Part shown: positions 3,501 to 64,000 of the stretch, one piece after another
Position numbering within the stretch: position 1 is the stretch's first letter
How the letters are laid out: each line of letters starts with the position of its first letter
IMG/VR virus record: IMGVR_UViG_3300027969_004705
Span: 8,672-72,671 of that record
Length of the DNA stretch: 64,000 bases
Source of the DNA: a virus
Strand: one strand, 5' to 3'
Translations under genes and position numbers: made by a program
The notes under the pieces: model-generated
The model's input: the letters and a program-made list of their open reading frames with translations, nothing else
The model's database searches: none
Told to the model about the DNA's origin: nothing

Positions 3501-4332
3501 TTTAATACATCGCACATATTGGATCGCCAAAAATAGATCATCTGAAACACCAGATCAAATTAATAATTTCCATATCTTTTTAACCCTGAATGCTATCTTT
3601 TCATATGTTAGTGCATATGTTCCAGATGTTATTTACGCTGCTTGGGACGAAAAACCTGATTATGAAGCTAATGTTCGTAAGACAATGCTTACTGAATATA
3701 AAGGCAACCGTTCTAATGATATTTCTCCACATCAAAATAATGAGATTATTAAACAACTGTTTACCTGTTTATCTATCAAATCTATCTTTCCTCGAGAACT
3801 AGAAGCAGATGATGTTATTGCATATATCTGTAATGAGACTCCTGGTCATAAAAAGATCTTGTCTGTAGATAAAGATTTCCTTCAGTTAGTTAATGAAAAT
3901 ATTGTTTGGTTCGACCCTATTCGTAAAGAAGAGATTAATATCCATAATTTTGCTGCAAAAACAGGGTATCCTAATACTAAAGAATGGATGGCAGCTAAAT
4001 GCTTAAGTGGTGATAAGTCAGATAATGTATCAGGTGTACCTAAATTTGGTAAAGTAACGATTCAAAAATATCTTAATGGATCTATTGAACTAAATGAAGA
4101 GCAAAAAGAGATCTTTCATAGAAATCAAGAAATTTTCTCATTATCTAAATACTCTACTATGGAAAGAGAGATGACATACTATGCAGACCAGCTTAAAGAT
4201 GGAATTGATCCAGATTGGGATAAATTTATGGATCTTTGTAATGAAAGAGAGCTATTTAGCATTACAAAAAATAAAACTAAATGGTATAACTTGTTTTTTT
4301 TAAAGTCTAAGCTAACATCAATGTTTAGCTAA
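3472..4332 (+). CDS. rnh: 5'-3' exonuclease / T4 RNase H (FEN family)
   Basis: LLIDANN, YKGNR, LEADDVIA, SVDKDFLQL, LSGDKSDNVSGV motifs. Confidence 0.92.
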   Translation: MKTLLIDANNLIHRTYWIAKNRSSETPDQINNFHIFLTLNAIFSYVSAYVPDVIYAAWDEKPDYEANVRKTMLTEYKGNRSNDISPHQNNEIIKQLFTCLSIKSIFPRELEADDVIAYICNETPGHKKILSVDKDFLQLVNENIVWFDPIRKEEINIHNFAAKTGYPNTKEWMAAKCLSGDKSDNVSGVPKFGKVTIQKYLNGSIELNEEQKEIFHRNQEIFSLSKYSTMEREMTYYADQLKDGIDPDWDKFMDLCNERELFSITKNKTKWYNLFFLKSKLTSMFS

Positions 4333-5381
4333 TGTTACCTCAAGATTATGTTATTTTAAAGTTTTATGAGCTTGGTTATTATCCTAAGCATAACAAGTTC
4401 AATAATACCTATCAATGTGGCTGTCCGATATGTAGAGAAGGTACATCATCTGGTAAAAAACGTCGCTGTTATTATCTGCCAGAAAAAGATAATATTTTCT
4501 GTCATAACTGCGGTTGGTCAAGTAAGCCTACTAAATGGATTTGTGAAGCATCTGGATGCACTCCTGCAGAAGTATACAAAGAAGCTAAAGAGTATATACC
4601 AACTCTGACTGACTCCTCAGCTGCAGTAGTACAGAAGATTAAGAGTGGCACCTTACCTCAAGATAGTATTAACTTATCAGATAGTAATCAACTTGAATAC
4701 TATAAAGACAATGATACTCTGCGTGTATGTCTCCAGGTTATTAAGCAAAGACGATTAGATGTAGCCATAAATCGACCTGATAACTTGTATATTTCTTTAA
4801 CAGATTATACTCATAAAAATAGGCTAGTGATACCATTCGTAAATGAGCATAATGACATAGAATTTTATCAGTCTCGTACAATATTATCATACGATAATAA
4901 GAAACCTAAATATCTATCAAGAATCAATGCTGAGAAGACCTTATTTAATATTAATAAAGTTGATATTAATAGTGACTTTGTTTATATCTTTGAAGGTCCT
5001 TTAAATGCATTCTTTACAAAAAATAGCGTAGCAGTTGCTGGTATTACGGAAGGTAAGAATACCTTTACCCCTCGACAGCAAGAACAACTCGATACAGTTC
5101 TTAAATTACATAGTAAAATATGGGTTCTTGATTCACAATGGATAGATAAAGCTAGTTTTACTAAAACGAGAGTATTACTCGATCAAGGTGACAAGGTTTT
5201 TATTTGGCCTGAAAAAATTGGAAAGAATTTTAAAGATTTTAACGATATAGCTATCAGAGGTAAATTAAATGAAATAAAAGAAGAATTTATACAAAAAAAT
5301 TCCTACAGTGGTATTGTAGGAATTTTAAAGTTAACTGAGATTGCTAAGTTTAGAGGTTTAACTAACGTTAAACATACTTAA
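4332..5381 (+). CDS. gp61: DNA primase (T4 gp61-like)
   Basis: Zn-binding CPIC...CHNCG, RLVIPF, YQSR, PKYL, TOPRIM FEGPLNA, KDFND. Confidence 0.92.
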   Translation: MLPQDYVILKFYELGYYPKHNKFNNTYQCGCPICREGTSSGKKRRCYYLPEKDNIFCHNCGWSSKPTKWICEASGCTPAEVYKEAKEYIPTLTDSSAAVVQKIKSGTLPQDSINLSDSNQLEYYKDNDTLRVCLQVIKQRRLDVAINRPDNLYISLTDYTHKNRLVIPFVNEHNDIEFYQSRTILSYDNKKPKYLSRINAEKTLFNINKVDINSDFVYIFEGPLNAFFTKNSVAVAGITEGKNTFTPRQQEQLDTVLKLHSKIWVLDSQWIDKASFTKTRVLLDQGDKVFIWPEKIGKNFKDFNDIAIRGKLNEIKEEFIQKNSYSGIVGILKLTEIAKFRGLTNVKHT

Positions 5382-7661: not shown

Positions 7662-8704
7662 GCTTCAGACCAACTATAATTTATATAGTAATCAAAAAAG
7701 TTCATAAAACTTGAAACACCTGCGTAACTTGTCCCACCTGTGTAAATAGTGTTCGTTTCGCAACACTCGCAATTAATATTGAGAGCACTTAAAGTGTTAA
7801 TAGGAGTTCGATATAAAACAAGAGGAAATTTTAGTCTCGATATAAAAAATTTACTTGCTCTGTCTACCGTATTATCCCTTGTTAATATTAAAGAATTAAT
7901 ATCTTTATAAATTCCAAGGGGATTAGAAGATATTTTATAAAAAACTGTAGATACAGTATATGTACGGGTGCTATTGTTAATAGAGCTGCCCAATTCTGTA
8001 GAATAAAAGGTGGAATATGTTTTATTTACTATACCATAAATAATAGGATCTGGATAATTACGACCAAATTGCGGTAGACTTTCATTATTTTTACAGACAA
8101 TTAATGTACTTCCAGTTTTATACGTTCTATCAGCGTAAGGCACTTGATAGACTTGACTTGTAATAGGTACATAGTATGTATAGTTATCTAGAGTATTAAA
8201 TTGTAGTGATGTTTTGCTGTTTGTGTTCCAATTTAATTTAAGTCTATACGTAAATTCTAAGCTATCGCCTTTACTTATTAAAATAGGTTCAGCAAACACA
8301 TTTCTTGCAAAAGAACTAGCATTTATACCTCCCTTAATACTAAATTCATTTAGTTCTAAATCTATAACTGCTTGCGATGTATTATATACATTATAATGCA
8401 CGACAGTGCTTAAGTTTTCGTAAGATGTATTTGCTGTAACACGCGGAACATTAAGAAAATTACTATCTAATTGCGGAGTAATAACGCCTGAAAGTTGAAA
8501 GCCTAAAGATCCTTTTAAATCAGTACTAGTACCAAAATCTACATACCCTAATAGATCAGTGATGTTATTATTATACAAAGAAGCTAAACCTCCAGCGAGA
8601 ATAGTATTTCTACACCAATCACTTTCAAATGTTATAGTATTATTATTGGTAATTTTTACCTTATATTCTCCTACCAACCCTATGTTAAAGTCTAATTTAT
8701 TCAT
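7658..8704 (-). CDS. Putative virion/tail structural protein
   Basis: GEYKVKI...WCRNTIL..G, FARNVF, GDSLEFTYRL resemble tail-protein N-terminal domains; last gene of the structural block. Confidence 0.55.
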   Translation of the reverse strand: MNKLDFNIGLVGEYKVKITNNNTITFESDWCRNTILAGGLASLYNNNITDLLGYVDFGTSTDLKGSLGFQLSGVITPQLDSNFLNVPRVTANTSYENLSTVVHYNVYNTSQAVIDLELNEFSIKGGINASSFARNVFAEPILISKGDSLEFTYRLKLNWNTNSKTSLQFNTLDNYTYYVPITSQVYQVPYADRTYKTGSTLIVCKNNESLPQFGRNYPDPIIYGIVNKTYSTFYSTELGSSINNSTRTYTVSTVFYKISSNPLGIYKDINSLILTRDNTVDRASKFFISRLKFPLVLYRTPINTLSALNINCECCETNTIYTGGTSYAGVSSFMNFFDYYINYSWSEA

Positions 8705-19323: not shown

Positions 19324-22300
19324 TTAAAAATTAAAAATTAAAGTAACTAATCCAGGAGCACCATCACCGCCAGCGGCACCGTCAGTGCCACCATTAGTGC
19401 CTCCACCTGCACCTGACCCGCCTATTCCACAGTAGAGAGGACCAGTAAGGATAGCAGCAGGTGCGAAACCTCCTCCACTAGCATTAGCTGCACCTCCATT
19501 AGCAGCCCCACCATATCCAATACCACTGAGTCTAACTGTTTCAGTGGTATCTATGCTTCCTCCACCTGCACCTCCAGTAGATCCATTAGGATTAAAAGAA
19601 GTCGAAGTTCCGCTAGTGGACGCAGATACACCATATCCCGTGAATCCAGCATATGTGCCTGTTCCAGCGTTACTAGAAATTGAGCCTCCTATCGAAGTTG
19701 CTGATGTTCCTCCAACACCGGTATTACCATTGTTAACACTGCTTCCGCCTTGGTTGACTCCTGCGGATATAAGAGGTGTACTACCTCGTAGTATTCCTGA
19801 TGCACCACCAATAGATCCAGGATTTCCATTAGTGTTAGCACTTAATGCTGGTATGCCCGCGCCCCCTGCACCTCCTGCTCCAACAGTAACAGTCCAAGTT
19901 CCTGCCGCAACATTTGCAGAAAAAATAGTTCTAACTGTTCGCCAGCCCCCGCCACCACCTGTTCCTCCAAGACGGTTTGTGCCGACTGCTCCCATTCTGC
20001 CACTACCGCCTCCTGCACCGCCTTGTATTGCTTCAGCCATACAAGTCACCCAGCCAGTAGGAGGAGTAATTGTAGACACACCAGACAGCACAGCAACACC
20101 TGCGTTATTGCTGGCATACTGGAAAATGTAGGTTACTGGAGATGGTGCAACCGGGGTACCATTTACGGTTATTGATGTTGCAGAAATACTTTTAGATGAA
20201 ACACTATTAGAAAATGTTCCATTAACTGCTGATAATGATGTAAAGTTTGCCGTATTACTACTAATATTATTAGTTACTGTAATATTAGAAAATATACCAT
20301 TAACTGCTGATAATGATGTAACTGAGAGTGATGCAAATATTGGACTACTAGAGAGTCCAAGACCTAAATTAACTCTTGCTCCAGAAGCAGTAGTTGATCC
20401 AGTACCTCCTACTGACAACGGTAATGTGGTAGATAGTGTATCTGCCATAGGTGCTACTGCTAGATTGGCTAAGCTGCCTAGCACAAGAGGTGTACCGAGC
20501 CGTGTGCTGTAATAAGCTAAGTGTTTGACTGAAAGATTGGCTTCACCCCATCGAAGTTGATTTTGCGTACTATATGGATTTAAGCCAGAGTCAAAAGCAG
20601 CTGTTTGTAAAACGCCATTAAGCCATACTTTATGACGGTTTACTGTGTCGGTTGAGCTCCAGTCAATAACAATATCAAAGTCTGGAACCGTTCGAGCAGC
20701 GAGATTGTAGTTAATTATGTCTCCACCGGATAAATTTCGGAAACGTACTTGTAGTGCGCTGGCAGAGTCGTAAATGGTAGGACCAGGACTATAACCTCCA
20801 GAGTCAACCATCGCAAATAATTCAACGAGACCAGCAGAAACTGGACGACTACCGCTAAAGCGTATGGTACCGCCGCTTGAATAAAAGACTGAACTGAAAG
20901 CCGTACTAGACAAGGTACCAGAATCTGCTCCAGTATCCCACGCAGGGAATGCATTTCCGAGTAGTCCAGTTACTGGTTGAACAACAGTAGCAGTAGCAAT
21001 CTTTAAGTCGTTGCCGCTTCTCCATAATGTTCCAGGTGATCCTGTACCTGGGTCGGCAGTTAGAATAGCAGCAAGTGATAGATTAATAGATGTACTAGCA
21101 AATGTTGCAGTAGTAACTCTGTTAGGTTTAATGTAGACGGGCTTATCAGCACCTGTTCCGATACATAAGCTATCCGTTGCTCCAGATCCTTCAATTATGG
21201 AATTGCTTCCTGCGTTGCTAAATAACTGGAACAAATTATCATATGAACCAAATAACGGGTAGGTATTTATGGTAGTATTTGTAGGAACTGAGGTTCCGGT
21301 CTGTAATGTAAGTGTTTGCGGAGCGGCTATTGTTATATTAGAAGTTTCGCTTTTTACAACACCTGCATTAATAAAAGTAACTCGATTATCAAGTCGTGCA
21401 ACCCACGAATATCTGCCCGTAACTAGTGAATCCTTATTGCCTAATATAGTCTGTCCTGTTCCCCTATCAACAAAAGCATATGACGTAAAAGCAACATCTA
21501 ACCCTAATTCATAATTATCAGTTCCGGTTACTATTACGCCAGTATTATTTCCTGGTAGATACTGCCCACCACTAATATATGTACCGCTTCCAGATACGCC
21601 AGATAATGCAAATCTATTAAAATCTATAGCACTAATAGCTACATTAGTCACATTCGCATTAGGAATTCCAGTAACACCAAAAATGGTCACTTTGTCGCCA
21701 GTAGATCTTCCATGACCGGTATACTCTAAACCAGCGGGTATGTCTGAAGTTATGATGATAGGATTACCACTAGTAACATTAGTTATAGTTCTTAAATATT
21801 TAGAAGTACTTGTTATTGGCATAAATACCCCTGTACAATTTTTAAGTCTTACACCAGTAGACACTTCTTCTGCTTGGAATGCATTAATATTAATACCTCT
21901 ACAATTTTCAGCATATAGAGAAGGATAATAGTCGCCATCACTATCTTTTGCCCATTGATTATTGTTAATAAAAGAACAGACTACCTGCTTTGCTGCAAAA
22001 CTATAACAAGTATTTAGACTTATTCCAGGTCCACGAGTAACTCCTTCAACATTCAAGTAGCCTACATCGACAGAACCACCGTTGATATCGGTTACAAAAC
22101 CTCTTAGACCGCATTCATAAATCCCTAAAAATCCAATTGTACCTCTTTGCGCACATGAAAATCTTAATCCACTACTATAAGGGTTATTATTATTGTATCC
22201 ATTAACAAGAGATCTATTTCCACTAATACATATATTGTTAATATATGCTGCGAATGTATTTGCAGCACCAGGTCCGTTACTTTCATTGGATAACATATAC

Positions 22301-23592
22301 ACCACAAATTTTTCAGAAACAGTAGCAACATTATTTTTAAAGTTAATATATATGTATTTATTTTCTCCTATTAAATTAGTGAATGCAGATATATACCAAG
22401 TGTCGGAAATGTAGTAAATTGCGGATTGTTTAGCACTACTTTGTGGGAAATATATAATCCCTATACGAAGAGGTGTGCCCGCGCCTTTTATATACATTTT
22501 AGTAGCAGTAGGAGGAATAGCCTGCTTTAGGCCCGGAGAAGCGATGGTAATAGTTCCAGGTGCAGATACGCCAGCGGTTACGGTGTATTGATTACCGTCA
22601 CCATTAAAGGTAATAATATCACCAACAAGAACATTACCAGTACCTGCAATAATAGGAATAGAAGTAGCACTTACCGCAAATCCTGCTGCTGTAGTAGTGT
22701 ATCCTGTTCCATCACCTTTATTTGGAGGAGGAGTTTCTCCTACACCTCTGCCAGTAGTCGAGTCGTAAGATCCAGGAGAAATTGGTAACGAATTATAGGC
22801 AGCTTTAATAGCAGATAAACAGTCTACAGCAGTAGCACCTGCATTAAAATCATCAAAAGTCGGCAATGCTCCGAAATTTAATACATTTCTAGGACCTTCG
22901 TAAAATCCAGAATCTGCTGTAGCATCGTCTGGATTTGCATATATTACAGCAGACCCTTCATTAAATTTAATATTGACATTTGATGCATATGTGGATAATG
23001 GAAATCCTGAAGTAATTCCAAAATTTCCTTGAGATAATTCTGCAACAGCTGGACTTGATGGAGTGAGTTGTGCGTACTGTAATGCTTTTTTCAATGCATC
23101 CATTCTAGCAGCATTAGTATCAGCAGACGATTCGAATTTTTTGACATTGTTACCTTGTTTCACTAACACATATCCATACTCCGGAGGATTAAAGTCTGAT
23201 ACCCACGCATTCAATCCATTACTATTTAAAATTGGAGATGCATATGGTATGTTTATAACTCTACTAGAAGCTCCGTTAATAGTAGCAGCACCAGCATATA
23301 AAGTAGCATAATTGGTAGTATTTAACTGACCATTAACATCTGAAAATATTAATGTAGTTCCAGTCGGATAATTAACAGGGCTAGGGAGACTATATGTTCT
23401 CGGTCCGGTTAATGTTGCAGTCAAACGCGCAAACGTAGTGCCAGCAGCAATAGTTGCATCAGCATCTCCAAGATTTTGAACTTTAATAGGAAGTAGTCCA
23501 AGTCTGGTTTGACCCCATGCTTGATCACTACTAGTTGGTGTTAGACCTTCGACAAAAAGTCTATCTGCTTCTGGTTTTAAGTATGTACTCAT
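19324..23592 (-). CDS. Tailspike/receptor-binding protein (pectate-lyase-like beta-helix, Gly-rich C-terminus)
   Basis: NVLNFGA...AIKAA...IIYFP...YYIS beta-helix entry motif, beta-helix repeats, and a Gly-rich terminal domain (GGAGGGSG, GGDGAPGLV). Confidence 0.75.
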   Translation of the reverse strand: MSTYLKPEADRLFVEGLTPTSSDQAWGQTRLGLLPIKVQNLGDADATIAAGTTFARLTATLTGPRTYSLPSPVNYPTGTTLIFSDVNGQLNTTNYATLYAGAATINGASSRVINIPYASPILNSNGLNAWVSDFNPPEYGYVLVKQGNNVKKFESSADTNAARMDALKKALQYAQLTPSSPAVAELSQGNFGITSGFPLSTYASNVNIKFNEGSAVIYANPDDATADSGFYEGPRNVLNFGALPTFDDFNAGATAVDCLSAIKAAYNSLPISPGSYDSTTGRGVGETPPPNKGDGTGYTTTAAGFAVSATSIPIIAGTGNVLVGDIITFNGDGNQYTVTAGVSAPGTITIASPGLKQAIPPTATKMYIKGAGTPLRIGIIYFPQSSAKQSAIYYISDTWYISAFTNLIGENKYIYINFKNNVATVSEKFVVYMLSNESNGPGAANTFAAYINNICISGNRSLVNGYNNNNPYSSGLRFSCAQRGTIGFLGIYECGLRGFVTDINGGSVDVGYLNVEGVTRGPGISLNTCYSFAAKQVVCSFINNNQWAKDSDGDYYPSLYAENCRGININAFQAEEVSTGVRLKNCTGVFMPITSTSKYLRTITNVTSGNPIIITSDIPAGLEYTGHGRSTGDKVTIFGVTGIPNANVTNVAISAIDFNRFALSGVSGSGTYISGGQYLPGNNTGVIVTGTDNYELGLDVAFTSYAFVDRGTGQTILGNKDSLVTGRYSWVARLDNRVTFINAGVVKSETSNITIAAPQTLTLQTGTSVPTNTTINTYPLFGSYDNLFQLFSNAGSNSIIEGSGATDSLCIGTGADKPVYIKPNRVTTATFASTSINLSLAAILTADPGTGSPGTLWRSGNDLKIATATVVQPVTGLLGNAFPAWDTGADSGTLSSTAFSSVFYSSGGTIRFSGSRPVSAGLVELFAMVDSGGYSPGPTIYDSASALQVRFRNLSGGDIINYNLAARTVPDFDIVIDWSSTDTVNRHKVWLNGVLQTAAFDSGLNPYSTQNQLRWGEANLSVKHLAYYSTRLGTPLVLGSLANLAVAPMADTLSTTLPLSVGGTGSTTASGARVNLGLGLSSSPIFASLSVTSLSAVNGIFSNITVTNNISSNTANFTSLSAVNGTFSNSVSSKSISATSITVNGTPVAPSPVTYIFQYASNNAGVAVLSGVSTITPPTGWVTCMAEAIQGGAGGGSGRMGAVGTNRLGGTGGGGGWRTVRTIFSANVAAGTWTVTVGAGGAGGAGIPALSANTNGNPGSIGGASGILRGSTPLISAGVNQGGSSVNNGNTGVGGTSATSIGGSISSNAGTGTYAGFTGYGVSASTSGTSTSFNPNGSTGGAGGGSIDTTETVRLSGIGYGGAANGGAANASGGGFAPAAILTGPLYCGIGGSGAGGGTNGGTDGAAGGDGAPGLVTLIFNF
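20219..20321 (-). repeat. 25-bp direct repeat inside the tailspike (TSLSAVNG x2)
   Basis: ccattaactgctgataatgatgtaa at 20219-20243 and 20297-20321 (78 bp period, in frame). Confidence 0.85.
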
Positions 23593-56764: not shown

Positions 56765-57019
56765 ATGAACATTATAAGATACTTAACTACAGAACCAGAT
56801 AATAAGTGTCTTGTAGATATCGTTCACTCTTTTACTGAAGATATTTTAAATATACACGATATTTTTATTTATCCTATTATAAATAAAGAAGACGATGATG
56901 GTATAATAACAGAAATTGTAGGTACACGAATTCTACTTAGTGATGAACTTAAAATAGACTATGCAAATACCATGCACCAAATATTAGTCAAAGAGCTAAA
57001 ATTAACATTACCTGAATAA
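56765..57019 (+). CDS. Hypothetical protein
   Basis: 84 aa in the operon. Confidence 0.6.
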   Translation: MNIIRYLTTEPDNKCLVDIVHSFTEDILNIHDIFIYPIINKEDDDGIITEIVGTRILLSDELKIDYANTMHQILVKELKLTLPE

Positions 57020-57029
57020 AAAAAAGCCC

Positions 57030-57206
57030 ATGTTTGAAGAAAAAATTGGAGACACACGTTTCGAATACGAAAAAAATAGCAAAAGAATTAACATATATGT
57101 AACAGGAGATATTGACCCTGTATCATACATTACTGTTGATCAAAATTTAACTGAAAAAGACTTTCATTATGAAATTATGACTTGGGCATTGCAAAAAGGC
57201 TATTGA
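57030..57206 (+). CDS. Small hypothetical protein (58 aa)
   Basis: MFEEKIGDTRFEYEKNSKRINIY...QKGY* fills the gap. Not in the ORF track. Confidence 0.6.
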   Translation: MFEEKIGDTRFEYEKNSKRINIYVTGDIDPVSYITVDQNLTEKDFHYEIMTWALQKGY

Positions 57207-57248
57207 TAAAACTAAACTTTCCATCAAGTATCCATTAAATATTATGAC

Positions 57249-57569
57249 ATGGATACTGAAAAGTCATTAGTTAAAGAGTTTATAAACGGTGGTTGGGTAG
57301 TACCTGTAGTGGGCGCATTAGCTATGCTAGCTCGTTTATTAACATCGCCTAATCCTATACCTATTGTAGAGCAGATAAAAAAAATAGTTACTGCTGCTCT
57401 TGCTTCAGGTATATCATGGTTTGTTCTAGAGCAGACTGATATAGGTAGTTTAACTAAAGCAATTACATATGGTATAATTGGTGTAGTCTCTCCAGAAATT
57501 ATAAATGGATTAATTAAGCTAGGTAAACGGTTTGAAAAAAATCCTACTCAGTTTATAGACAAAAAATAA
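57249..57569 (+). CDS. Small membrane protein, holin-like
   Basis: Three hydrophobic segments, basic C-tail; TTAAATA 7 nt upstream. Confidence 0.55.
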   Translation: MDTEKSLVKEFINGGWVVPVVGALAMLARLLTSPNPIPIVEQIKKIVTAALASGISWFVLEQTDIGSLTKAITYGIIGVVSPEIINGLIKLGKRFEKNPTQFIDKK

Positions 57570-57588
57570 AAATATCTTTTAAACTTAG

Positions 57589-57780
57589 GTGTCTATTCAT
57601 AGCATAATATATAACATAATTATTATTTTTTGCTGCTTTAAAGCTAAAGCACAGCAAAAAATTAGACGTGAACAAAAAATACAATTAGAAATTATAAAGC
57701 AAAAATTAGAAAAACAACTCATAATAAAAAGATTAATTGTAATTAAAAACCGTGTAAAAAAAGAACAACAAGCTCTGTAA
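57589..57780 (+). CDS. Possible small basic protein
   Basis: GTG start, hydrophobic N-terminus then Lys-rich; weak call. Confidence 0.35.
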   Translation: MSIHSIIYNIIIIFCCFKAKAQQKIRREQKIQLEIIKQKLEKQLIIKRLIVIKNRVKKEQQAL

Positions 57781-57797
57781 ACGAACTATAATATAAT
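57780..57797 (+). promoter_or_regulatory. Early-type promoter motif
   Basis: AACGAACTATAATATAAT, 6 nt before ATG 57804. Confidence 0.75.
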
Positions 57798-57803
57798 ATA
57801 TAA

Positions 57804-58049
57804 ATGAACTGTGAATGTGGAAAAATTGTCGAATTTGGTCGAGTCAGTCTTGGGCTTACTATTTGTAAGTCTTGCGCTAATCGGGTACCTAGTACTGATC
57901 GTGTGCGTGGTCGTATGGTATATCTTGATAAGTGTACTCCTGTTATGGAGGTTCATTCTCACACAAGTTGGAATGATAATAAAAAATACTTTACACCTAA
58001 CGGCGCACGCTCTGCTGTAAAAAACTTTTCTAGAAACTCCTGCTGCTAA
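57804..58049 (+). CDS. Zinc-finger protein (DksA/TraR C4-like)
   Basis: CECGKIVEFGRVSLGLTICKSCA. Confidence 0.6.
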   Translation: MNCECGKIVEFGRVSLGLTICKSCANRVPSTDRVRGRMVYLDKCTPVMEVHSHTSWNDNKKYFTPNGARSAVKNFSRNSCC

Positions 58050-58052
58050 TAT

Positions 58053-58202
58053 ATGAATAACGGTGCATGGTCTGGAGGCAAAGGCTCAATACCTCGCAAG
58101 GTTAATAAAAAAGCATATGATGATTCCTATGAAAAAATATTCAAAAAGAATATTGAAGTAATTGTAAAAAATACAACCCCTACTGCTAAAGATGCAAACT
58201 AA
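58053..58202 (+). CDS. Small protein (49 aa) with GGKGSxPR...YEKIF motif
   Basis: MNNGAWSGGKGSIPRKVNKKAYDDSYEKIFKK...; motif recognised from small phage proteins. Not in the ORF track. Confidence 0.6.
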   Translation: MNNGAWSGGKGSIPRKVNKKAYDDSYEKIFKKNIEVIVKNTTPTAKDAN

Positions 58203-58722
58203 TCATTCTTCTTTATATACTAAATATCCTAATATTTTTATACCACACTTAACTGATAACTGTGTTTGCTTTCCAGACGAGTGGTTAAATGTTGTTGATC
58301 ATATGTGTAGTACTATTAATACCTATAGTAGTAAAACAAACGCTGTGGTAGTAAGACCGAGATTAAAGTATCGCTATATATTCTATGTTAAATATTGGCC
58401 GAAGTTAAAAGCTTTTGTCTTTAAAATTCTTGACCCTGAGCGTAATTATTATCTTATGTATAAAAAAGTGTGGGTTAATACTGCTTTTGATAATCACCGT
58501 ATTGCTAATACTCTTTGTTACAAACTTCTTGATAGGTTTAATAAATTAGCTTTTAAATTTTTTAATGGTTATTCGTTTTTTGAAAATCAGCCCAAGTTTA
58601 AAATAAATGAAATTACTAATACTGGAGGTAATTTGGTTATGTATTATAGTGGAGGTGATAATTTTATCCGAGGTGTAATTAGTCTCGCGCAGCATATTAT
58701 TAAATCAAAAACAGCCATTTAA
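58192..58722 (+). CDS. Hypothetical protein
   Basis: LYTKYPNIF...W...GGNLVMYYSGGD...GVISLA. Confidence 0.65.
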   Translation: MQTNHSSLYTKYPNIFIPHLTDNCVCFPDEWLNVVDHMCSTINTYSSKTNAVVVRPRLKYRYIFYVKYWPKLKAFVFKILDPERNYYLMYKKVWVNTAFDNHRIANTLCYKLLDRFNKLAFKFFNGYSFFENQPKFKINEITNTGGNLVMYYSGGDNFIRGVISLAQHIIKSKTAI

Positions 58723-58727
58723 TAATT

Positions 58728-58745
58728 AACGAACTATTATATAAT
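58728..58745 (+). promoter_or_regulatory. Early-type promoter motif
   Basis: AACGAACTATTATATAAT, 7 nt before ATG 58753. Confidence 0.75.
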
Positions 58746-58752
58746 TAGATTA

Positions 58753-59448
58753 ATGAAATCTAAAAATTTAATTTGCTTACTCGGTGACGTTCATGGTAAG
58801 TTTAACTACCTGCGCGCTAAAATTATTAATGCTAAATTAACTGATTGTTATCTTATATGCGTCGGTGATTTAGGTATTGGATTTAATTTTCCTGATTTTG
58901 AAAAAAAAGATCTTGAAGATTTAAATTTGTTTTTCAAAAAACGTAATATATCCTTTTTATCTATTCGAGGTAACCACGATGATCCTAAGCCGTTTAACGA
59001 CAACTTTAAATTATCAAACTTTGAACTAATACCTGATTATACTTTTAGAATCATTAATGACGAAAGATTCTTATTTGTTGGTGGAGCACATTCTATTGAC
59101 CGTTATATGAGGCAACAAAAAGGTTATGGTTGGTGGTTAGATGAAGCTTTTGTACTAAAACCTGACCTAATCCAAGAATGTGATATACTTATTACTCATA
59201 GTGCACCTAATTGGTTATATCCATCTCCGTTACCGTCTTATGTTATTCCTAACGAAGACCCTAATTTGTATAAAGATTGTGCAGAAGAAAAAAATAATAT
59301 TGACAGTCTAGTTAAACAGTGTAAAGCTTCTCGTATTTATACAGGTCATTTTCACGAGAGCATTACGTTTCACCATAATTATGAGGAGACTAACTGGTGT
59401 CATGGCAGAATTCTCGCAGAGTTAGAATTAAAAGAGCATAAAAAATAA
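58753..59448 (+). CDS. Calcineurin-like metallophosphoesterase
   Basis: GDVHG, VGDLG, RGNHD, ITHSAP, GHFH. Confidence 0.92.
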   Translation: MKSKNLICLLGDVHGKFNYLRAKIINAKLTDCYLICVGDLGIGFNFPDFEKKDLEDLNLFFKKRNISFLSIRGNHDDPKPFNDNFKLSNFELIPDYTFRIINDERFLFVGGAHSIDRYMRQQKGYGWWLDEAFVLKPDLIQECDILITHSAPNWLYPSPLPSYVIPNEDPNLYKDCAEEKNNIDSLVKQCKASRIYTGHFHESITFHHNYEETNWCHGRILAELELKEHKK

Positions 59449-59458
59449 TCTATATTGA

Positions 59459-59476
59459 AATGAACTTCGATATAAT
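59459..59476 (+). promoter_or_regulatory. Early-type promoter motif for the RadA N-half
   Basis: AATGAACTTCGATATAAT. Confidence 0.75.
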
Positions 59477-59506
59477 TAAGGAAGTAATTAACCTAATATA
59501 TTAAAA

Positions 59507-59770
59507 ATGAATCTCTTAAATCATTCTTCTAACTTTACAAAAGTTTCTGATGTTACTATTCCTAGTATCTTTTACAATCGTATCAAGACGGGAATCGCAG
59601 AGATGGATGAAATGTATGGCGAAGGTATTCTTCCTGGAAGTGCTACTACTCTTACAGCTCAAGCTGGATGCGGCAAGTGTCACGGTCCTAATGAGATTAT
59701 TGAAATTTTTGGATCGGACGATATTATTAATAAATTCCAAACGTGGTTGGCCGCTAAAGCGGGCAAATAG
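59507..59770 (+). CDS. radA: RadA/Sms-like ATPase N-extein (57 aa) fused to split-intein N-fragment (30 aa; 59678-59767)
   Basis: RIKTGIAEMDEMYGEGILPGS...AQAGCGK, then CHGPNEIIEI (intein block A) in place of the Walker A Thr. Confidence 0.88.
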   Translation: MNLLNHSSNFTKVSDVTIPSIFYNRIKTGIAEMDEMYGEGILPGSATTLTAQAGCGKCHGPNEIIEIFGSDDIINKFQTWLAAKAGK

Positions 59771-59780
59771 CTCACGCAGG

Positions 59781-59788
59781 CATAAATA
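59781..59788 (+). promoter_or_regulatory. Late-type promoter for the endonuclease
   Basis: CATAAATA 5 nt before ATG 59794. Confidence 0.65.
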
Positions 59789-59793
59789 GTTAT

Positions 59794-60813
59794 ATGAATA
59801 TAACTCAACGTATACGAAAAAATAAAAAGGCCTATGTAACAGTCATAAAACATTGCATATCTTATAAAGATATAGAAGATTTTTTAATTGATATATCTTT
59901 AAAAAGGGGGTTAAACTTTTTACCGTTTAAAAACTATAATCATGTTAAGAGTTTTTTCGATAGCTGTTTAACAAAAGAGTCTATGTCTGCATGGGATTTA
60001 GAGATTCAATTTAATAAATGGAAAACTGCCAATAACCTGAAGGCAACAGGAATCCTACAGTCAAATTATTATATTTTACGTGGCTATACTAAGCAAGAAT
60101 CAGATTTTATAATAAAAGAACACCAAACTACTCGTTCAAATACAAATAAGTTACAGCGTGTAAAAAAATCAGTAAAAACAAAACGAGATAATAACTTATA
60201 TACAGCAAAACAGCAGGCTAGAGGTCGCAATTTTTACCTTAATAAAGGCTTCTCATATAGTGAAGTTGATGCTATAATGAATAAGAGAAATAATCAATGG
60301 CAAACATCTATGCAGCTAGCTATAGAACGTGACCCTTCTATTAATCCTCGTAAGGGAAGAAACAGACATCAGTTAATAGAACAGTATGGATATACAAAAG
60401 CTTGCGATATTATTGCATCTCGATTAAATGCTTCAATTTCTAAACCAGAAAAAAATATACGGAATTTACTGTCAGATAATTGGCAATCTCAGTGGTATAT
60501 AAATACAGGTAACAAATTTTTTATATATGATTTTATTAATCATGCAGCTAAAATTATATTAGAATTTAATGGTGATATATGGCACGCTAATCCAGAATTA
60601 TACTCTGAAAATTGGATTAACCCTGTAACAAAAAAAACAGCAAAAGAAATATGGAAACATGATAAAGAAAAAAAAATTATAGCTGAATTATTAGGTTACA
60701 AAGTTGTAACTTTTTGGGAAAAAAACTATAACGAACTCCGATATAACGAACTCCGATATAATAATAAAGCAATACAAAATAAACTATATGAAATCATTAA
60801 CGGTAACATTTAA
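59794..60813 (+). mobile_element. Free-standing Vsr/DUF559-like putative homing endonuclease between the split-gene halves
   Basis: SKPE, YDF, IILEFNGDIWHANP, HDKEK, GYKVVTFWE. Confidence 0.8.
60727..60762 (+). promoter_or_regulatory. Tandemly duplicated early-type promoter for the RadA C-half, inside the endonuclease 3' end
   Basis: 15-bp unit tataacgaactccga x2; the second copy completes AACGAACTCCGATATAAT (60745-60762). Confidence 0.75.
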
Positions 60814-61903
60814 AGATCTATTCGATTTCCTTAACATTGGTGATGATATTAATAATATCGAGTTTACAGATACTCAACTTTATGTCTTAACACCAACAAA
60901 GGAAGTAGTACCTATTAGAGGATATATTAAAAAAACGGAACATGAGATTGTAAATGTTAAGCTTGAAAACGGAGATGAATTTAATGTTTCATCTCGGCAT
61001 TTAGTCTTTGAAGAAGGTGAGTGTAAATTTGTAAAAGACTGTCAAACAGTTGATACGATTTATGGTTCATCTAAAATTTCTTCAATTCAAACTGTTAATA
61101 CAAATGCGGAAGTTTATGATATATCAATTGATGCACCTCATGTCTATATAACACCGAATGGTGTTATTCATCATAACACTTCCTACCTTCTGCAGTTGAT
61201 GGAAGCTCTCTCAAACAATGGGTATGAAACTGGATACGCTTCAGGTGAAGAGAATCAATACCAAATTGCGTTTACATGTAAGCGTTTGAACGTTCAAAAT
61301 ATTCAAATTGCTAATATTCAAGATATTGATGAGCTTGTTGAAGCGACTAAGAGCTTTGATGTTTTGGTTATCGACTCCTTTCAAGCGCTAACTACTAAGA
61401 ATAAGCTCAATCAAGCTGAGCTTGAACGTTATGCTGTAAACGAATTAATTAAAGCAGCTAAAGAAAACGAATGCGCTTTGTTCTTTATTATGCATCTTAC
61501 TAAAGATGGTAAATTGAAAGGATCTTCTCTGGTACCTCACTCTGTAGATGTCAATATTCAAATTATGATTGATACAGAGGGTGATAGCTCTGGTCGAATC
61601 TTCTCTGTCTATAAGAACCGGTTCGGTCCTACGAACGATTATAACGCAACTCTTGGACATAATGGCTTTCAATTTACCGGTAAGCGTGAAGGTGAAATGG
61701 GTAAATCTAAAAAAACTCGTAAACAAGATATTAAGAAAGAAATTCTTGAGCTTGATCCTCCTCTTATCACTAAAAGTCTCATTATTGAAAAATTTAGTAT
61801 TACTCCTTCTCAAGCCTATCTTACTCTCAAAGAGCTTGTTGATGCAAATAAACTTGTTAAAATTGGACGCGGTGAGAGTAGCGTCTGGAAGAAAACTATT
61901 TAA
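60788..61903 (+). CDS. radA: Split-intein C-fragment (130 aa; 60788-61177) fused to RadA/Sms-like C-extein (241 aa)
   Basis: Intein blocks B (SSRH), F (VYDISI), G (NGVIHHN|T). Extein YASGEE, LVIDSFQ, HLTKDG, KNRFG, plus a wHTH-like C-terminus. Confidence 0.9.
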   Translation: MKSLTVTFKDLFDFLNIGDDINNIEFTDTQLYVLTPTKEVVPIRGYIKKTEHEIVNVKLENGDEFNVSSRHLVFEEGECKFVKDCQTVDTIYGSSKISSIQTVNTNAEVYDISIDAPHVYITPNGVIHHNTSYLLQLMEALSNNGYETGYASGEENQYQIAFTCKRLNVQNIQIANIQDIDELVEATKSFDVLVIDSFQALTTKNKLNQAELERYAVNELIKAAKENECALFFIMHLTKDGKLKGSSLVPHSVDVNIQIMIDTEGDSSGRIFSVYKNRFGPTNDYNATLGHNGFQFTGKREGEMGKSKKTRKQDIKKEILELDPPLITKSLIIEKFSITPSQAYLTLKELVDANKLVKIGRGESSVWKKTI

Positions 61904-61906
61904 ACT

Positions 61907-62332
61907 ATGAAAACACGAATTAGCCTTTGCTTAGCTGCTTTGCTTGCCTCATGCCAGAGCATTCAACATAATACTTATACTGCAGTACGAACGGCACAAT
62001 ATAAAAAACTTACTTGTCGTGTAACTTATTATACTCCTGATAAAAAATGGGGTACTCAAGTATCTGCCCCTGGCGTTAAGACAGCCACTCAAGGAGTGAC
62101 TGTCGCTGCTCATCCTGACTTTAAATTTGGTACGAAGGTATCTATTCCGAGACTAAAAGGAATCTTAGATGATGGACTTTTTATTGTACAAGATAGAGGC
62201 AGCGCTGTAACAAAAAAGAAAGCTTCAAAAGGTAAAGCATACGTCGTTGATATCTATCTAGCTAATACTAAATCTCTTAAATTTTATACAAATTTACCTG
62301 AATATATGGATGTATACTTTGCAAAACCATAA
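61907..62332 (+). CDS. Lipoprotein with 3D (MltA-like) domain
   Basis: Lipobox LLASC; VTYY, VAAHP, FGTKVSIP, VQDRG, VDIY. Confidence 0.75.
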   Translation: MKTRISLCLAALLASCQSIQHNTYTAVRTAQYKKLTCRVTYYTPDKKWGTQVSAPGVKTATQGVTVAAHPDFKFGTKVSIPRLKGILDDGLFIVQDRGSAVTKKKASKGKAYVVDIYLANTKSLKFYTNLPEYMDVYFAKP

Positions 62333-62348
62333 TGAACTAGTATATAAT
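62331..62348 (+). promoter_or_regulatory. Early-type promoter motif
   Basis: AATGAACTAGTATATAAT. Confidence 0.75.
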
Positions 62349-62375
62349 AAGTTATAATAAAAACTTTAATTAAAA

Positions 62376-63680
62376 ATGAATAAACTGACTATTGAAAACA
62401 GTGAAAATTACGCTGCACATTATGTTACTTTGAAAACGCTGCTGGAGATTCCAGGTGCAAACAACATTCAGCACGCCGTTATTAACGGGAATCTTGTTAT
62501 CGTTTCAAAAGACTCTAAAGTAGGTGATAAGGGTGTATTTTTTCCAGTAGAGAGTCAACTGGCTAGTAGTTTCACATCGAGAAATAATCTTCATTCTGAC
62601 CAAATGTTGAATGTTGATCAGACCAAGAAGGGATACTTTGGCGATAAGCGACGTGTTCGGTGTATCAAATTTATGAAAGTTCCAAGTGAAGGATTGTTTT
62701 GTCCTCTGGAATATTTTGAGGTTTGGCGAGGAATTAAAGTTTCTGAATGGGATAATGTAGCTGATAATCACGCTTTTGATCACATTGATGGTGAGGAATT
62801 GTGCCGCAAATATCTTATTCGCGAAAAGCAGATCCCAGGCATCGCAGGTAAAAAAATAAAAAAACTGCCAAGCCGTTTGATTAAAGGTCAATATCATTTA
62901 CACTACGATACCTCTAAGCTAGCCGATAACATTCATTTGATTGACCCTGATGATTATATTATAATCTCTAATAAATTTCACGGTACGAGTCTTAATTGTG
63001 GTCGCGTTTTACTTAAGCGAAATTTATCCTGGTGGGAGAAAATTAAGAATTTTTGCGGATTAAATGTTCAATTAGCTGAATACGAAAACGTTTATGCTAG
63101 TCGTACAGTAATTAAATCACTATGTCCGCAAAATAATCATTATTACAAAGAGGACGTATGGCACGCAGGCTTTAAAACAATCGAACATGCACTGTCTGAT
63201 GGTATTCAGATTTACGCGGAAATCGTAGGTTATACACCATCTGGAAGTGCAATTCAAGGCCGTTGGACTTATGGCTGCAAGCCTGGAGAATATAAAGTAG
63301 TAGTTTACCGAGTGACTCACACTTCACCAGAAAACGTAGTGATGGAATATTCAATGCAAGAAGTTATTCAGTTCTGTCAGGATAATCAATTGCAACATGT
63401 TCCTATTTTTTATCGAGGTCCAGCGAAAGATGTATTTCCAGATCTTAATCTGAACGAGTCTTGGCAGGGTGAATTTCTTAAACAGTTAAAGACTTCTTTT
63501 AATTTAGAGAAAACTTGCAAAGAATGTAATACTGGAGTTCCAGCTGAAGGTATTTGTTTAAGAAATGAAACTAAAGGTCTCAAAGCGCTAAAGCTTAAGG
63601 CGTTTGCGTTTAATCTTAAAGAATCAGAAGCGCTAGATAAAGGTATTGTTGATATAGAATCGGATGATTTAGCGGATTAG
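62376..63680 (+). CDS. RNA ligase (DRB0094/Rnl5-like, N-terminal OB-fold)
   Basis: IPGANNI, GDKGVFFPVES, SEGL, KFHGTS (motif I), YAEIVG, EGICLR, LK. Confidence 0.8.
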   Translation: MNKLTIENSENYAAHYVTLKTLLEIPGANNIQHAVINGNLVIVSKDSKVGDKGVFFPVESQLASSFTSRNNLHSDQMLNVDQTKKGYFGDKRRVRCIKFMKVPSEGLFCPLEYFEVWRGIKVSEWDNVADNHAFDHIDGEELCRKYLIREKQIPGIAGKKIKKLPSRLIKGQYHLHYDTSKLADNIHLIDPDDYIIISNKFHGTSLNCGRVLLKRNLSWWEKIKNFCGLNVQLAEYENVYASRTVIKSLCPQNNHYYKEDVWHAGFKTIEHALSDGIQIYAEIVGYTPSGSAIQGRWTYGCKPGEYKVVVYRVTHTSPENVVMEYSMQEVIQFCQDNQLQHVPIFYRGPAKDVFPDLNLNESWQGEFLKQLKTSFNLEKTCKECNTGVPAEGICLRNETKGLKALKLKAFAFNLKESEALDKGIVDIESDDLAD

Positions 63681-63728
63681 AACACGCTATTTAACTTATA
63701 ATCTATGACAAACTAGCTTATCATGAAT

Positions 63729-63746
63729 AATGAATCTCTATAAAAT
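63729..63746 (+). promoter_or_regulatory. Degenerate early-type promoter motif
   Basis: AATGAATCTCTATAAAAT, 6 nt before ATG 63753. Confidence 0.55.
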
Positions 63747-63752
63747 AAAGGA

Positions 63753-63959
63753 ATGAACAACTTTACCGCTTATAAAACTGTTGCGAATCCTGTAATGTAT
63801 TCTACAGTGTATTCTGTAAGGGATTCTGTATGGGATTCTGTATGGGATTCTGTATGGGATTCTGTAAGGGATTCTGTAAGGCGTTCTGTAAGGCGTTCTG
63901 TAGAGGCTTCTGTAAGGGATTCTGTAAGAGATTCTGTAGAGGATTACTTTTTAAAATGA
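63753..63959 (+). CDS. Small tetrapeptide-repeat protein (SV[R/W]D)n
   Basis: SVRDSVWDSVWDSVWDSVRDSVRRSVRRSVEASVRDSVRDSVED. Confidence 0.7.
   Translation: MNNFTAYKTVANPVMYSTVYSVRDSVWDSVWDSVWDSVRDSVRRSVRRSVEASVRDSVRDSVEDYFLK
63813..63944 (+). repeat. 12-bp tandem repeat (tctgta[a/t]gggat and variants), 11 units
   Basis: Read directly from the sequence; in frame with ORF 63753. Confidence 0.9.
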
Positions 63960-63972
63960 ACTTCGCTAAAAT
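63955..63972 (+). promoter_or_regulatory. Early-type promoter motif before a truncated ORF (ATG 63979, MNNSNIY...)
   Basis: AATGAACTTCGCTAAAAT, 6 nt before the ATG. Confidence 0.6.
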
Positions 63973-64000
63973 AAAGCAATGAATAACTCTAACATTTATA

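Follow-up and report, generated by a model that had tools for sequence, protein, structure and literature searches.

How a RadA-like ATPase gene whose Walker A motif is interrupted by a stop codon and by another reading frame could still give one intact protein is the question raised by positions 59507–61903 of the viral DNA analysed here (IMG/VR record IMGVR_UViG_3300027969_004705, positions 8,672 to 72,671; 64,000 nucleotides (nt), hereafter the window). The window is part of a linear 72.7-kb virus contig with an estimated completeness of ~35%, and its G+C content is ~30%. The locus is very probably a fractured RadA-like gene whose product is restored by protein trans-splicing via an atypically split intein, an EDxHD-like nuclease element lying between the halves; trans-splicing is inferred from the motifs, the predicted fold and the existence of an empty allele. 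The N- and C-terminal intein pieces are designated IntN and IntC, and the motif blocks are named A, B, F and G according to the usual nomenclature. The features of the locus are as follows (aa, amino acids; ORF, open reading frame; P0002, an uninterrupted homologue; L003 and L004, other contigs with a fractured and an uninterrupted form, respectively):

59507–59677, + strand: N-extein, 57 aa, ending AQAGCGK (Walker A residues GCGK); identical to residues 1–57 of uninterrupted P0002; Pfam KaiC match at residues 26–57.
59678–59770, + strand: IntN, 30 aa from Cys1 (CHGPNEIIEI..., CHGPNEIIEIFGSDDIINKFQTWLAAKAGK), then stop codon; missing from the empty allele L004.
59771–59793, no strand: spacer of 23 nt between the N-fragment stop and the nuclease start; same sequence in L003.
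59794–60813, + strand: free-standing homing-endonuclease-like ORF, 339 aa, with a helical N-terminal part and a Vsr/EDxHD-like domain at about residues 228–320.
60788–61177, + strand: IntC, 130 aa, containing SSRH (block B), VYDISI (block F) and HHN (block G, in the end GVIHHN).
61178–61903, + strand: C-extein, 241 aa and stop, with the +1 Thr of Walker A, TSYLLQL, Walker B VLVIDSFQ, KNRFG and a tail of ~80 aa.

The three ORFs are adjacent and all on the + strand in the order extein–IntN, endonuclease, IntC–extein, and this layout is repeated in L003, L009 and L010. The N-fragment ORF (59507–59770, 87 aa) reads ...TLTAQAGCGK, then CHGPNEIIEIFGSDDIINKFQTWLAAKAGK and stop; the C-fragment ORF (60788–61903, 371 aa) reads NVSSRH, VYDISI and GVIHHN, then TSYLLQL, YASGEE, VIDSFQ, HLTKDG and YKNRFGP, the start of IntC overlapping the nuclease ORF by 26 nt. 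The element 59678–61177 (1500 nt) is in frame within the Walker A codons GCGK|T. The initial annotation, made from the sequence alone, had given this layout and a rejoined length of about 298 aa: every motif that it quoted was recovered from the ORF listing with translations, and the exteins sum to 57 + 241 = 298 aa, the length of P0002.

The same annotation had called for a search for an uninterrupted orthologue with the predicted junction, and one was found. When 1545 candidates were searched with the C-extein, 478 proved to be homologues at E ≤ 0.001; among the 120 matches listed, 118 were uninterrupted (273–322 aa) and two had an intein domain (the window protein and P0015). In P0002, uninterrupted and exactly 298 aa long, the first 57 residues equal the window N-extein, the sequence continues ...AQAGCGKTSYLLQL..., and the junction AQAGCGK|TSYLLQL is exactly the predicted one; the window C-extein is 95% identical to P0002 residues 58–298. 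At the DNA level L004 is a syntenic uninterrupted locus with the same neighbours (metallophosphoesterase upstream, 3D-domain protein downstream); its alignment with the window runs up to 59677 and resumes at ~61175. Relative to P0002 and L004 the insertion is in frame, and its edges coincide exactly with Cys1 and with Asn|Thr+1. The protein family phrog_26214 was matched by N-fragment residues 11–58 (profile positions 24–69) and by C-fragment residues 131–285 (positions 69–227); because the two halves abut at profile position 69, their pairing is not due to chance. An 81-aa protein of a different kind, P0124, was also noted: its N-extein runs to ...TLTAQA and goes over directly into the C-terminal 28 residues of a C-extein (YLTLKELVDANKL...). 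Either a deletion between two '..QA' sites, with loss of intein, nuclease and most of the ATPase, or an assembly artefact seems to be behind this form.

The uninterrupted form matched KaiC and AAA_25 (Pfam), the C-extein matched AAA_25, and bacterial RadA structures (5lkm) matched the uninterrupted form at E 5.3e-22 over residues 12–213; a RecA-like domain, Walker A and B and YKNRFGP, i.e., a RadA-type ATPase core, are present. RadA/Sms proteins carry an N-terminal zinc finger and a C-terminal Lon-protease-like domain, and KNRFG is the RadA signature. The full architecture (both terminal domains and a score above the equivalog cut-off) was not found in the host protein: TIGR00416 (sms/RadA) gave E 2e-30 and 105.9 bits vs a cut-off of 403.05, over profile positions 73–267 of 454 only. 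The RadA/Sms-like host first proposed was thus retained as regards the ATPase domain with KNRFG and given up as a full RadA; it is named RadA-like, and not RadA, because only the ATPase core is covered and the score is far below the cut-off. The C-terminal tail of ~80 aa gave only a weak winged-helix-like match (Ribosomal_S25, E 0.031).

The catalytic residues of a class-1 intein are in place: Cys1, (T/S)xxH, the block F Asp, His-Asn and the +1 Thr. Among the N-fragments (n = 6, 52–99% identity) C58, H59, G60, P61, E63 and I65 are invariant; among the C-fragment clusters (n = 8, 28–72% overall identity) S68, H71, D111, H128, H129, N130 and T131 (Thr+1) are invariant. The Pyrococcus horikoshii RadA intein was the closest solved intein by sequence (E 4.2e-4) and also the top fold match of the AlphaFold2 (AF2) model of IntC (8-row alignment; predicted local distance difference test, pLDDT, 73; E 2.7e-6). 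The insertion point of that intein is the P-loop. With Foldseek the IntC model had 27 PDB matches at E ≤ 0.001, every listed one being an intein; the atypically split Cat intein (6dsl) is within this limit, and VidaL (6vgv) and gp41-1 are listed beyond it, so the expected Hint fold of the C-fragment was recovered. IntN is ~100–130 aa long in canonical split inteins and 15–37 aa in natural atypical ones (PMC13014065, PMC11766414); the IntN of 30 aa found here, beside an IntC of 130 aa, falls in the latter range. The intein, as read from its sequence, is therefore atypically split, with a short IntN and a long IntC; the split intein of the initial annotation is upheld by motifs, fold and empty allele, and this type of split is a refinement of it.

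Association of the two pieces was addressed by co-folding IntC (residues 1–140) with IntN (residues 48–87): the score was 0.60 (runs 0.64/0.60/0.60) vs 0.00 for the best of three controls, with contact agreement between runs ≥ 77% and partner pLDDT ≥ 68. Of 80 solved complexes 58 reach the mark used, as do 2 of 110 mismatched pairs; scores no higher than 0.60 occurred in only 7 of the 80 solved complexes, and in both mismatches passing the mark. The result may moreover reflect likeness to, or memory of, known structures, because split-intein complexes are among those solved. For the co-folding of the fragments that the initial annotation had named as a test, the outcome was weak support, with a score above the controls. 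This bears on a rival explanation in which the intein pieces no longer splice and serve only as a non-covalent dimerisation module for the ATPase halves, as has a precedent in a fragmented phage ribonucleotide reductase with interaction domains derived from a mobile element (PMC3045599); the weak co-fold speaks for it. We nevertheless hold it to be improbable: the class-1 residues (Cys1, S/TxxH, block F Asp, HN, Thr+1) are invariant across diverged copies, which would be unexpected if binding alone were selected, and, with the protein broken within the P-loop, Lys on one side and Thr on the other, halves held together non-covalently would probably not form a functional ATP site.

The middle ORF was matched by phrog_22677 (E 3.6e-13) and had 4934 representatives of homologues at E ≤ 0.001. 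In an alignment of 41 sequences D246, E257, G260, W308 and E309 are invariant, and D261, W263, H264, N266, P267, D290 and K293 nearly so. The AF2 model (pLDDT 88.5) has helical N-terminal two-thirds and a C-terminal alpha/beta domain, for which the best Foldseek match was E. coli Vsr (1cw0, E 2.5e-3, probability 1.00); I-Bth0305I (3r3p, probability 0.99) and the DUF559 protein 3hrl were also among the best, both with a target-normalised TM-score of 0.66. In the alignment of hidden Markov models with I-Bth0305I, IIEFNGD stands opposite IEVNG and DKEK opposite DKRK, from which a one-to-one mapping of the EDxHD residues is suggested. No family for this protein was found in NCBIfam, and phmmer against the PDB sequences returned nothing at E ≤ 10. 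That the ORF is Vsr/EDxHD-like and a predicted nuclease is well supported by modelled fold and motifs; the Vsr/DUF559-like protein of 339 aa described at the outset is accordingly supported by its modelled fold and conserved residues. The long helical N-terminal region of the model could bind DNA.

Whether the element is mobile and whether the host gene is alive can be judged from L003, in which the same three ORFs occur. Between window and L003 the element (59678–61177) differs at 8 of 1500 nt, the C-extein at 84 of 726 and the N-extein at 5 of 171; in 100-nt bins the step in identity is located at the C-terminal splice junction. Because 8 differences in 1500 nt adjoin 84 in 726, recent lateral spread of the element is indicated. 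Eight other RadA-like fractured alleles agree in direction, IntC identity (55–99%) exceeding C-extein identity (33–94%) in 8 of 8; for distant pairs this is also expected from strong constraint on the intein, and the window/L003 contrast is the stronger argument for mobility. The codon differences in the exteins of the same pair (63 synonymous, 15 non-synonymous) are mostly synonymous, so that the host gene appears to be still under purifying selection. Taken together, the sequence comparison is as expected for an element passing among diverged alleles while the host gene stays under purifying selection. It also bears on a second rival, by which insertion of an endonuclease with intein remnants inactivated a dispensable RadA-like gene whose pieces are now decaying. 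With 118 of the 120 listed homologues free of an intein domain, such a history has something in its favour; against it speak the codon pattern just given, the intactness of all three ORFs in the window, L003, L009 and L010, and the persistence of N- and C-fragment families to 52% and 28% identity with conserved ends, and it is in our view very improbable.

At the RNA level, no Rfam family was found in 59000–62400 at E ≤ 1, and no group I intron match. A 211-nt metatranscriptome contig (59670–59880) bridges IntN, spacer and nuclease start; RNA libraries may contain DNA, contigs cannot show transcript ends, and the parts of the stretch outside the X21 RNA-library contigs carry no information. 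Sigma-70 promoter and terminator matches in 58600–62500 were about as frequent as in shuffled sequence, and none of the terminators lay on the + strand between the ORFs. As to the DNA, a 12.6-kb contig of run X4 spans 59504–62000 with 105 differences and a 1.7-kb contig of run X2 spans 60040–61746 with 0 differences; the arrangement recurs in the independent assemblies L003, L009, L010 and the X4 contig, and in the four runs compared no joint across the element was listed. A third rival, by which the joining takes place in the RNA (through an intron with a nuclease gene) or the split is an assembly artefact, finds little room here and is the least credible of the three: the Rfam search was empty, several independent contigs and runs show the arrangement, and the insert keeps the reading frame and codes for intein blocks.

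For the fractured gene restored by trans-splicing the following course is proposed. The three ORFs probably share a transcript. Through IntN and IntC the N-fragment (87 aa) and the C-fragment (371 aa) would come together and complete the Hint fold; class-1 trans-splicing (thioester at Cys1, attack by the +1 Thr, cyclisation of Asn130) would then give a 298-aa ATPase with an intact P-loop. In co-infection the endonuclease would cut intein-less alleles of the L004/P0002 type, and repair would copy the element in; this homing step is suggested by the nuclease family and the population pattern.

Several results weigh against the proposed reading. Pfam Intein_splicing (PF14890) at the end of IntC scored 29.9 bits, under the gathering cut-off of 35.8; a partial score is expected because the ORF holds only the C-terminal 130 of ~160 intein residues. 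The co-fold was given as 'weak support' only, without a reported interface. For the nuclease the DUF559 match (E 0.012, 15.9 bits) is below the gathering cut-off of 20.6, the Foldseek E-values are modest (best 2.5e-3), the profile search against PDB sequences was marginal (3hrl 0.029, 3r3p 0.13), and the codon differences between window and L003 are 5 non-synonymous and 2 synonymous, small numbers that are compatible with relaxed constraint on this ORF. Co-transcription is supported by the one RNA-library contig only, and no Shine-Dalgarno-like sequence was found within ~15 nt upstream of any of the three ORFs.

Fractured hosts described by Dassa et al. (2009) are gp41 (gp41-1 to -9), IMPDH, DnaE, NrdA, NrdJ, DNA ligase and terminase (PMC2677866). 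As at the present locus, a free-standing endonuclease, Vsr-like or GIY-YIG, is flanked in these genes by extein–intein ORFs on the same strand and overlaps the second of them, and the hosts are DNA-metabolism genes of phages in aquatic metagenomes; unlike them, the host here is a RadA/Sms-like ATPase, 'RadA' and 'Sms' occurring 0 times in the main text of that paper. In the open-access literature searched (without supplements) no RadA/Sms-type host of a split intein was found, the five mentions of RadA in PMC4760082 concerning archaeal RadA; a split-intein clamp loader was likewise not found there by titles and beginnings of abstracts. The possibly new split-intein locus of the initial annotation is accordingly new in its host, as far as this literature goes, and is not unique: at least seven RadA-like clusters carry it, and related inteins occupy the same P-loop site in DnaB/gp41-like helicase and gp44/RFC-like clamp-loader genes of phages.

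Natural atypical IntN pieces are those of AceL-TerL (25 aa), GOS-TerL (37 aa), VidaL (16 aa) and PolB16 (15 aa) (PMC13014065, PMC11766414). A short IntN and a long IntC are shared with these inteins; the host and the insertion site (P-loop GK|T) are different here, as are the nucleophiles, Cys1/Thr+1 vs Cys or Ser at 1 and Cys at +1 in the TerL inteins (PMC11766414). With Cat (6dsl) and VidaL (6vgv) the fold of IntC matches, and sequence identity is only 16–20%. The P. horikoshii RadA intein (4e2t, 4e2u, 2lqm), closest by sequence and fold, also sits in a recombination ATPase of the RecA superfamily; it is a contiguous archaeal mini-intein in a Rad51-type RadA, with no nuclease, whereas the present one is split and accompanied by a nuclease. 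I-Bth0305I is the prototype of the EDxHD homing endonucleases, a Vsr-like family first found between split-intein halves (PMC3239194, PMC2677866). Its structure (3r3p) has the same C-terminal nuclease fold, and the window ORF has conserved Glu, Asp, His and Asp residues that may correspond to the EDxHD set; I-Bth0305I is intron-encoded in a recA gene, the window nuclease is free-standing between intein halves, and the similarity is marginal (E 0.13).

The fractured gp41 of Vibrio phage vB_VmeM-32 (KU160494, L001) has an IntC 36% identical to that of the window over 131 aa (E 4e-17). IntN is also short there, ~27 aa after GVN|C, and the start of the C-fragment overlaps the nuclease ORF, as here; the nuclease between the halves (378 aa, annotated as hypothetical) is weakly homologous to that of the window (E 2e-5). 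The host gene is a DnaB/gp41-type helicase, unlike the RadA-like host here, and between the two N-fragments no similarity was detectable. Both gp41 halves (2095–2793 and 4004–5170) are unannotated in the record, and the gene is adjoined by a fractured UvsX with a SegG-like nuclease.

Relatives of the window intein fall into five other clusters and one odd deletion form by N-fragment, and into seven RadA-like clusters and one clamp-loader-like cluster (P0132) by C-fragment. When viral contigs were scanned with the IntC alignment, 9 of 101 pattern matches were confirmed as loci; in them the break is always after ...GK, and the C-extein always begins with Thr:

L008: on the same contig as L003.
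L009: RadA-like; nuclease 377 aa.
L010: RadA-like; nuclease 304 aa, homologous to the window nuclease (E 8e-49).
L011, 168–1740: DnaB/gp41-like helicase split at ...HVGK|C; the halves are ~215 nt apart, with no nuclease ORF in between.
L012: gp44/RFC-like; nuclease 170 aa, homologous to the window nuclease (E 3e-23).
L013: gp44/RFC-like; no nuclease.
L014: gp44/RFC-like; no nuclease.
L015: gp44/RFC-like.
L016: gp44/RFC-like; nuclease 502 aa, homologous to the window nuclease (E 4e-20).

A wider reading may be built on these loci, namely that one P-loop-specific, atypically split intein lineage with an EDxHD-like nuclease has moved among at least three non-orthologous ATPase genes (RadA-like, DnaB/gp41-like helicase, gp44/RFC-like clamp loader) of large aquatic phages at the same ...GK|T site; it is put forward tentatively, as a serious possibility that stops a little short of being probable. 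The order of the transfers was not read from the IntC tree (16 sequences) because it is poorly resolved: two branches are very long, and of the 13 inner ones a single branch is starred. As a separate observation, the clamp-loader C-fragments of L014 (4001–5721) and L015 (2633–3547) are apparently split again at Walker B, after ...VVIDE (or LLDE), by a further intein-like segment that begins with Cys (in L014, 54.8 bits for Pfam Intein_splicing); the following ORF of L014 has the intein end ...TVSN, then CDGLTKDAQKILRG. By sequence, the clamp-loader gene would be in three pieces with two split inteins.

In the whole 72.7-kb contig no second locus was found with PF14890 or with the nuclease protein. 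The genes next to the fractured one are as follows:

58753–59448: metallophosphoesterase, upstream neighbour (phrog_1649, E 6.5e-24); conserved in L003 and L004.
62376–63680: RNA ligase (phrog_968, E 5.5e-56); conserved in L003.

Of ten large window ORFs scanned against PHROG, three were matched at E ≤ 1e-5 (one by tail sheath, one by tail fibre and collar families, and one, along 82 residues, by a family of major head proteins) and the other seven were not. Since a tail sheath and tail-fibre proteins are encoded, the source virus is taken to be a large phage with a contractile tail. The head-protein match is in the ORF at 19324–23592 (– strand, 1421 aa), of which only residues 289–370 match phrog_283 (E 7e-8). 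A small ORF at 63753–63959 (68 aa) consists mostly of repeated DSVW/DSVR units, and the overlapping frames are repetitive too. The T4 late-promoter motif TATAAATA was considered and dismissed, 32 matches in the window vs 26.9 expected being no enrichment. The stretches 59477–59506, 59764–59793, 60758–60787 and 61877–61906 are without a Shine-Dalgarno-like sequence, and this lack at four ORF starts may say something about the translation initiation of the host.

A nucleotide search of GenBank phages with 57000–64000 gave no match, and all protein matches there were below 60% identity; there is therefore no close cultured relative in that collection. Near-identical DNA was found in freshwater metagenomes, six runs containing at least half of the sampled words (runs with small word shares were not used for claims); all six are dated 2017, so that a single campaign may underlie them, and the source sample may be among them.

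The element is of a known selfish type, and its RadA-like host gene is one in which it had not been described in the literature searched; a recombination ATPase of RadA-like type thereby joins the fractured genes of phages. Natural split inteins with a short N-piece are few, and a new candidate (IntN 30 aa, Cys1/Thr+1) with natural variants is provided here; such inteins are sought as tools for labelling proteins and for semisynthesis, since their short piece is accessible to chemical synthesis. Because a matched pair of occupied and empty alleles from closely related phages is at hand, homing by a free-standing nuclease is directly testable. Together with the gp41- and gp44-type loci, the RadA-like locus provides material for studying the passage of inteins from one gene to an unrelated one by way of conserved P-loop sequences; if the wider reading is true, shared P-loop codons would be a portable homing site and the RadA-like locus a snapshot of ectopic intein transfer.

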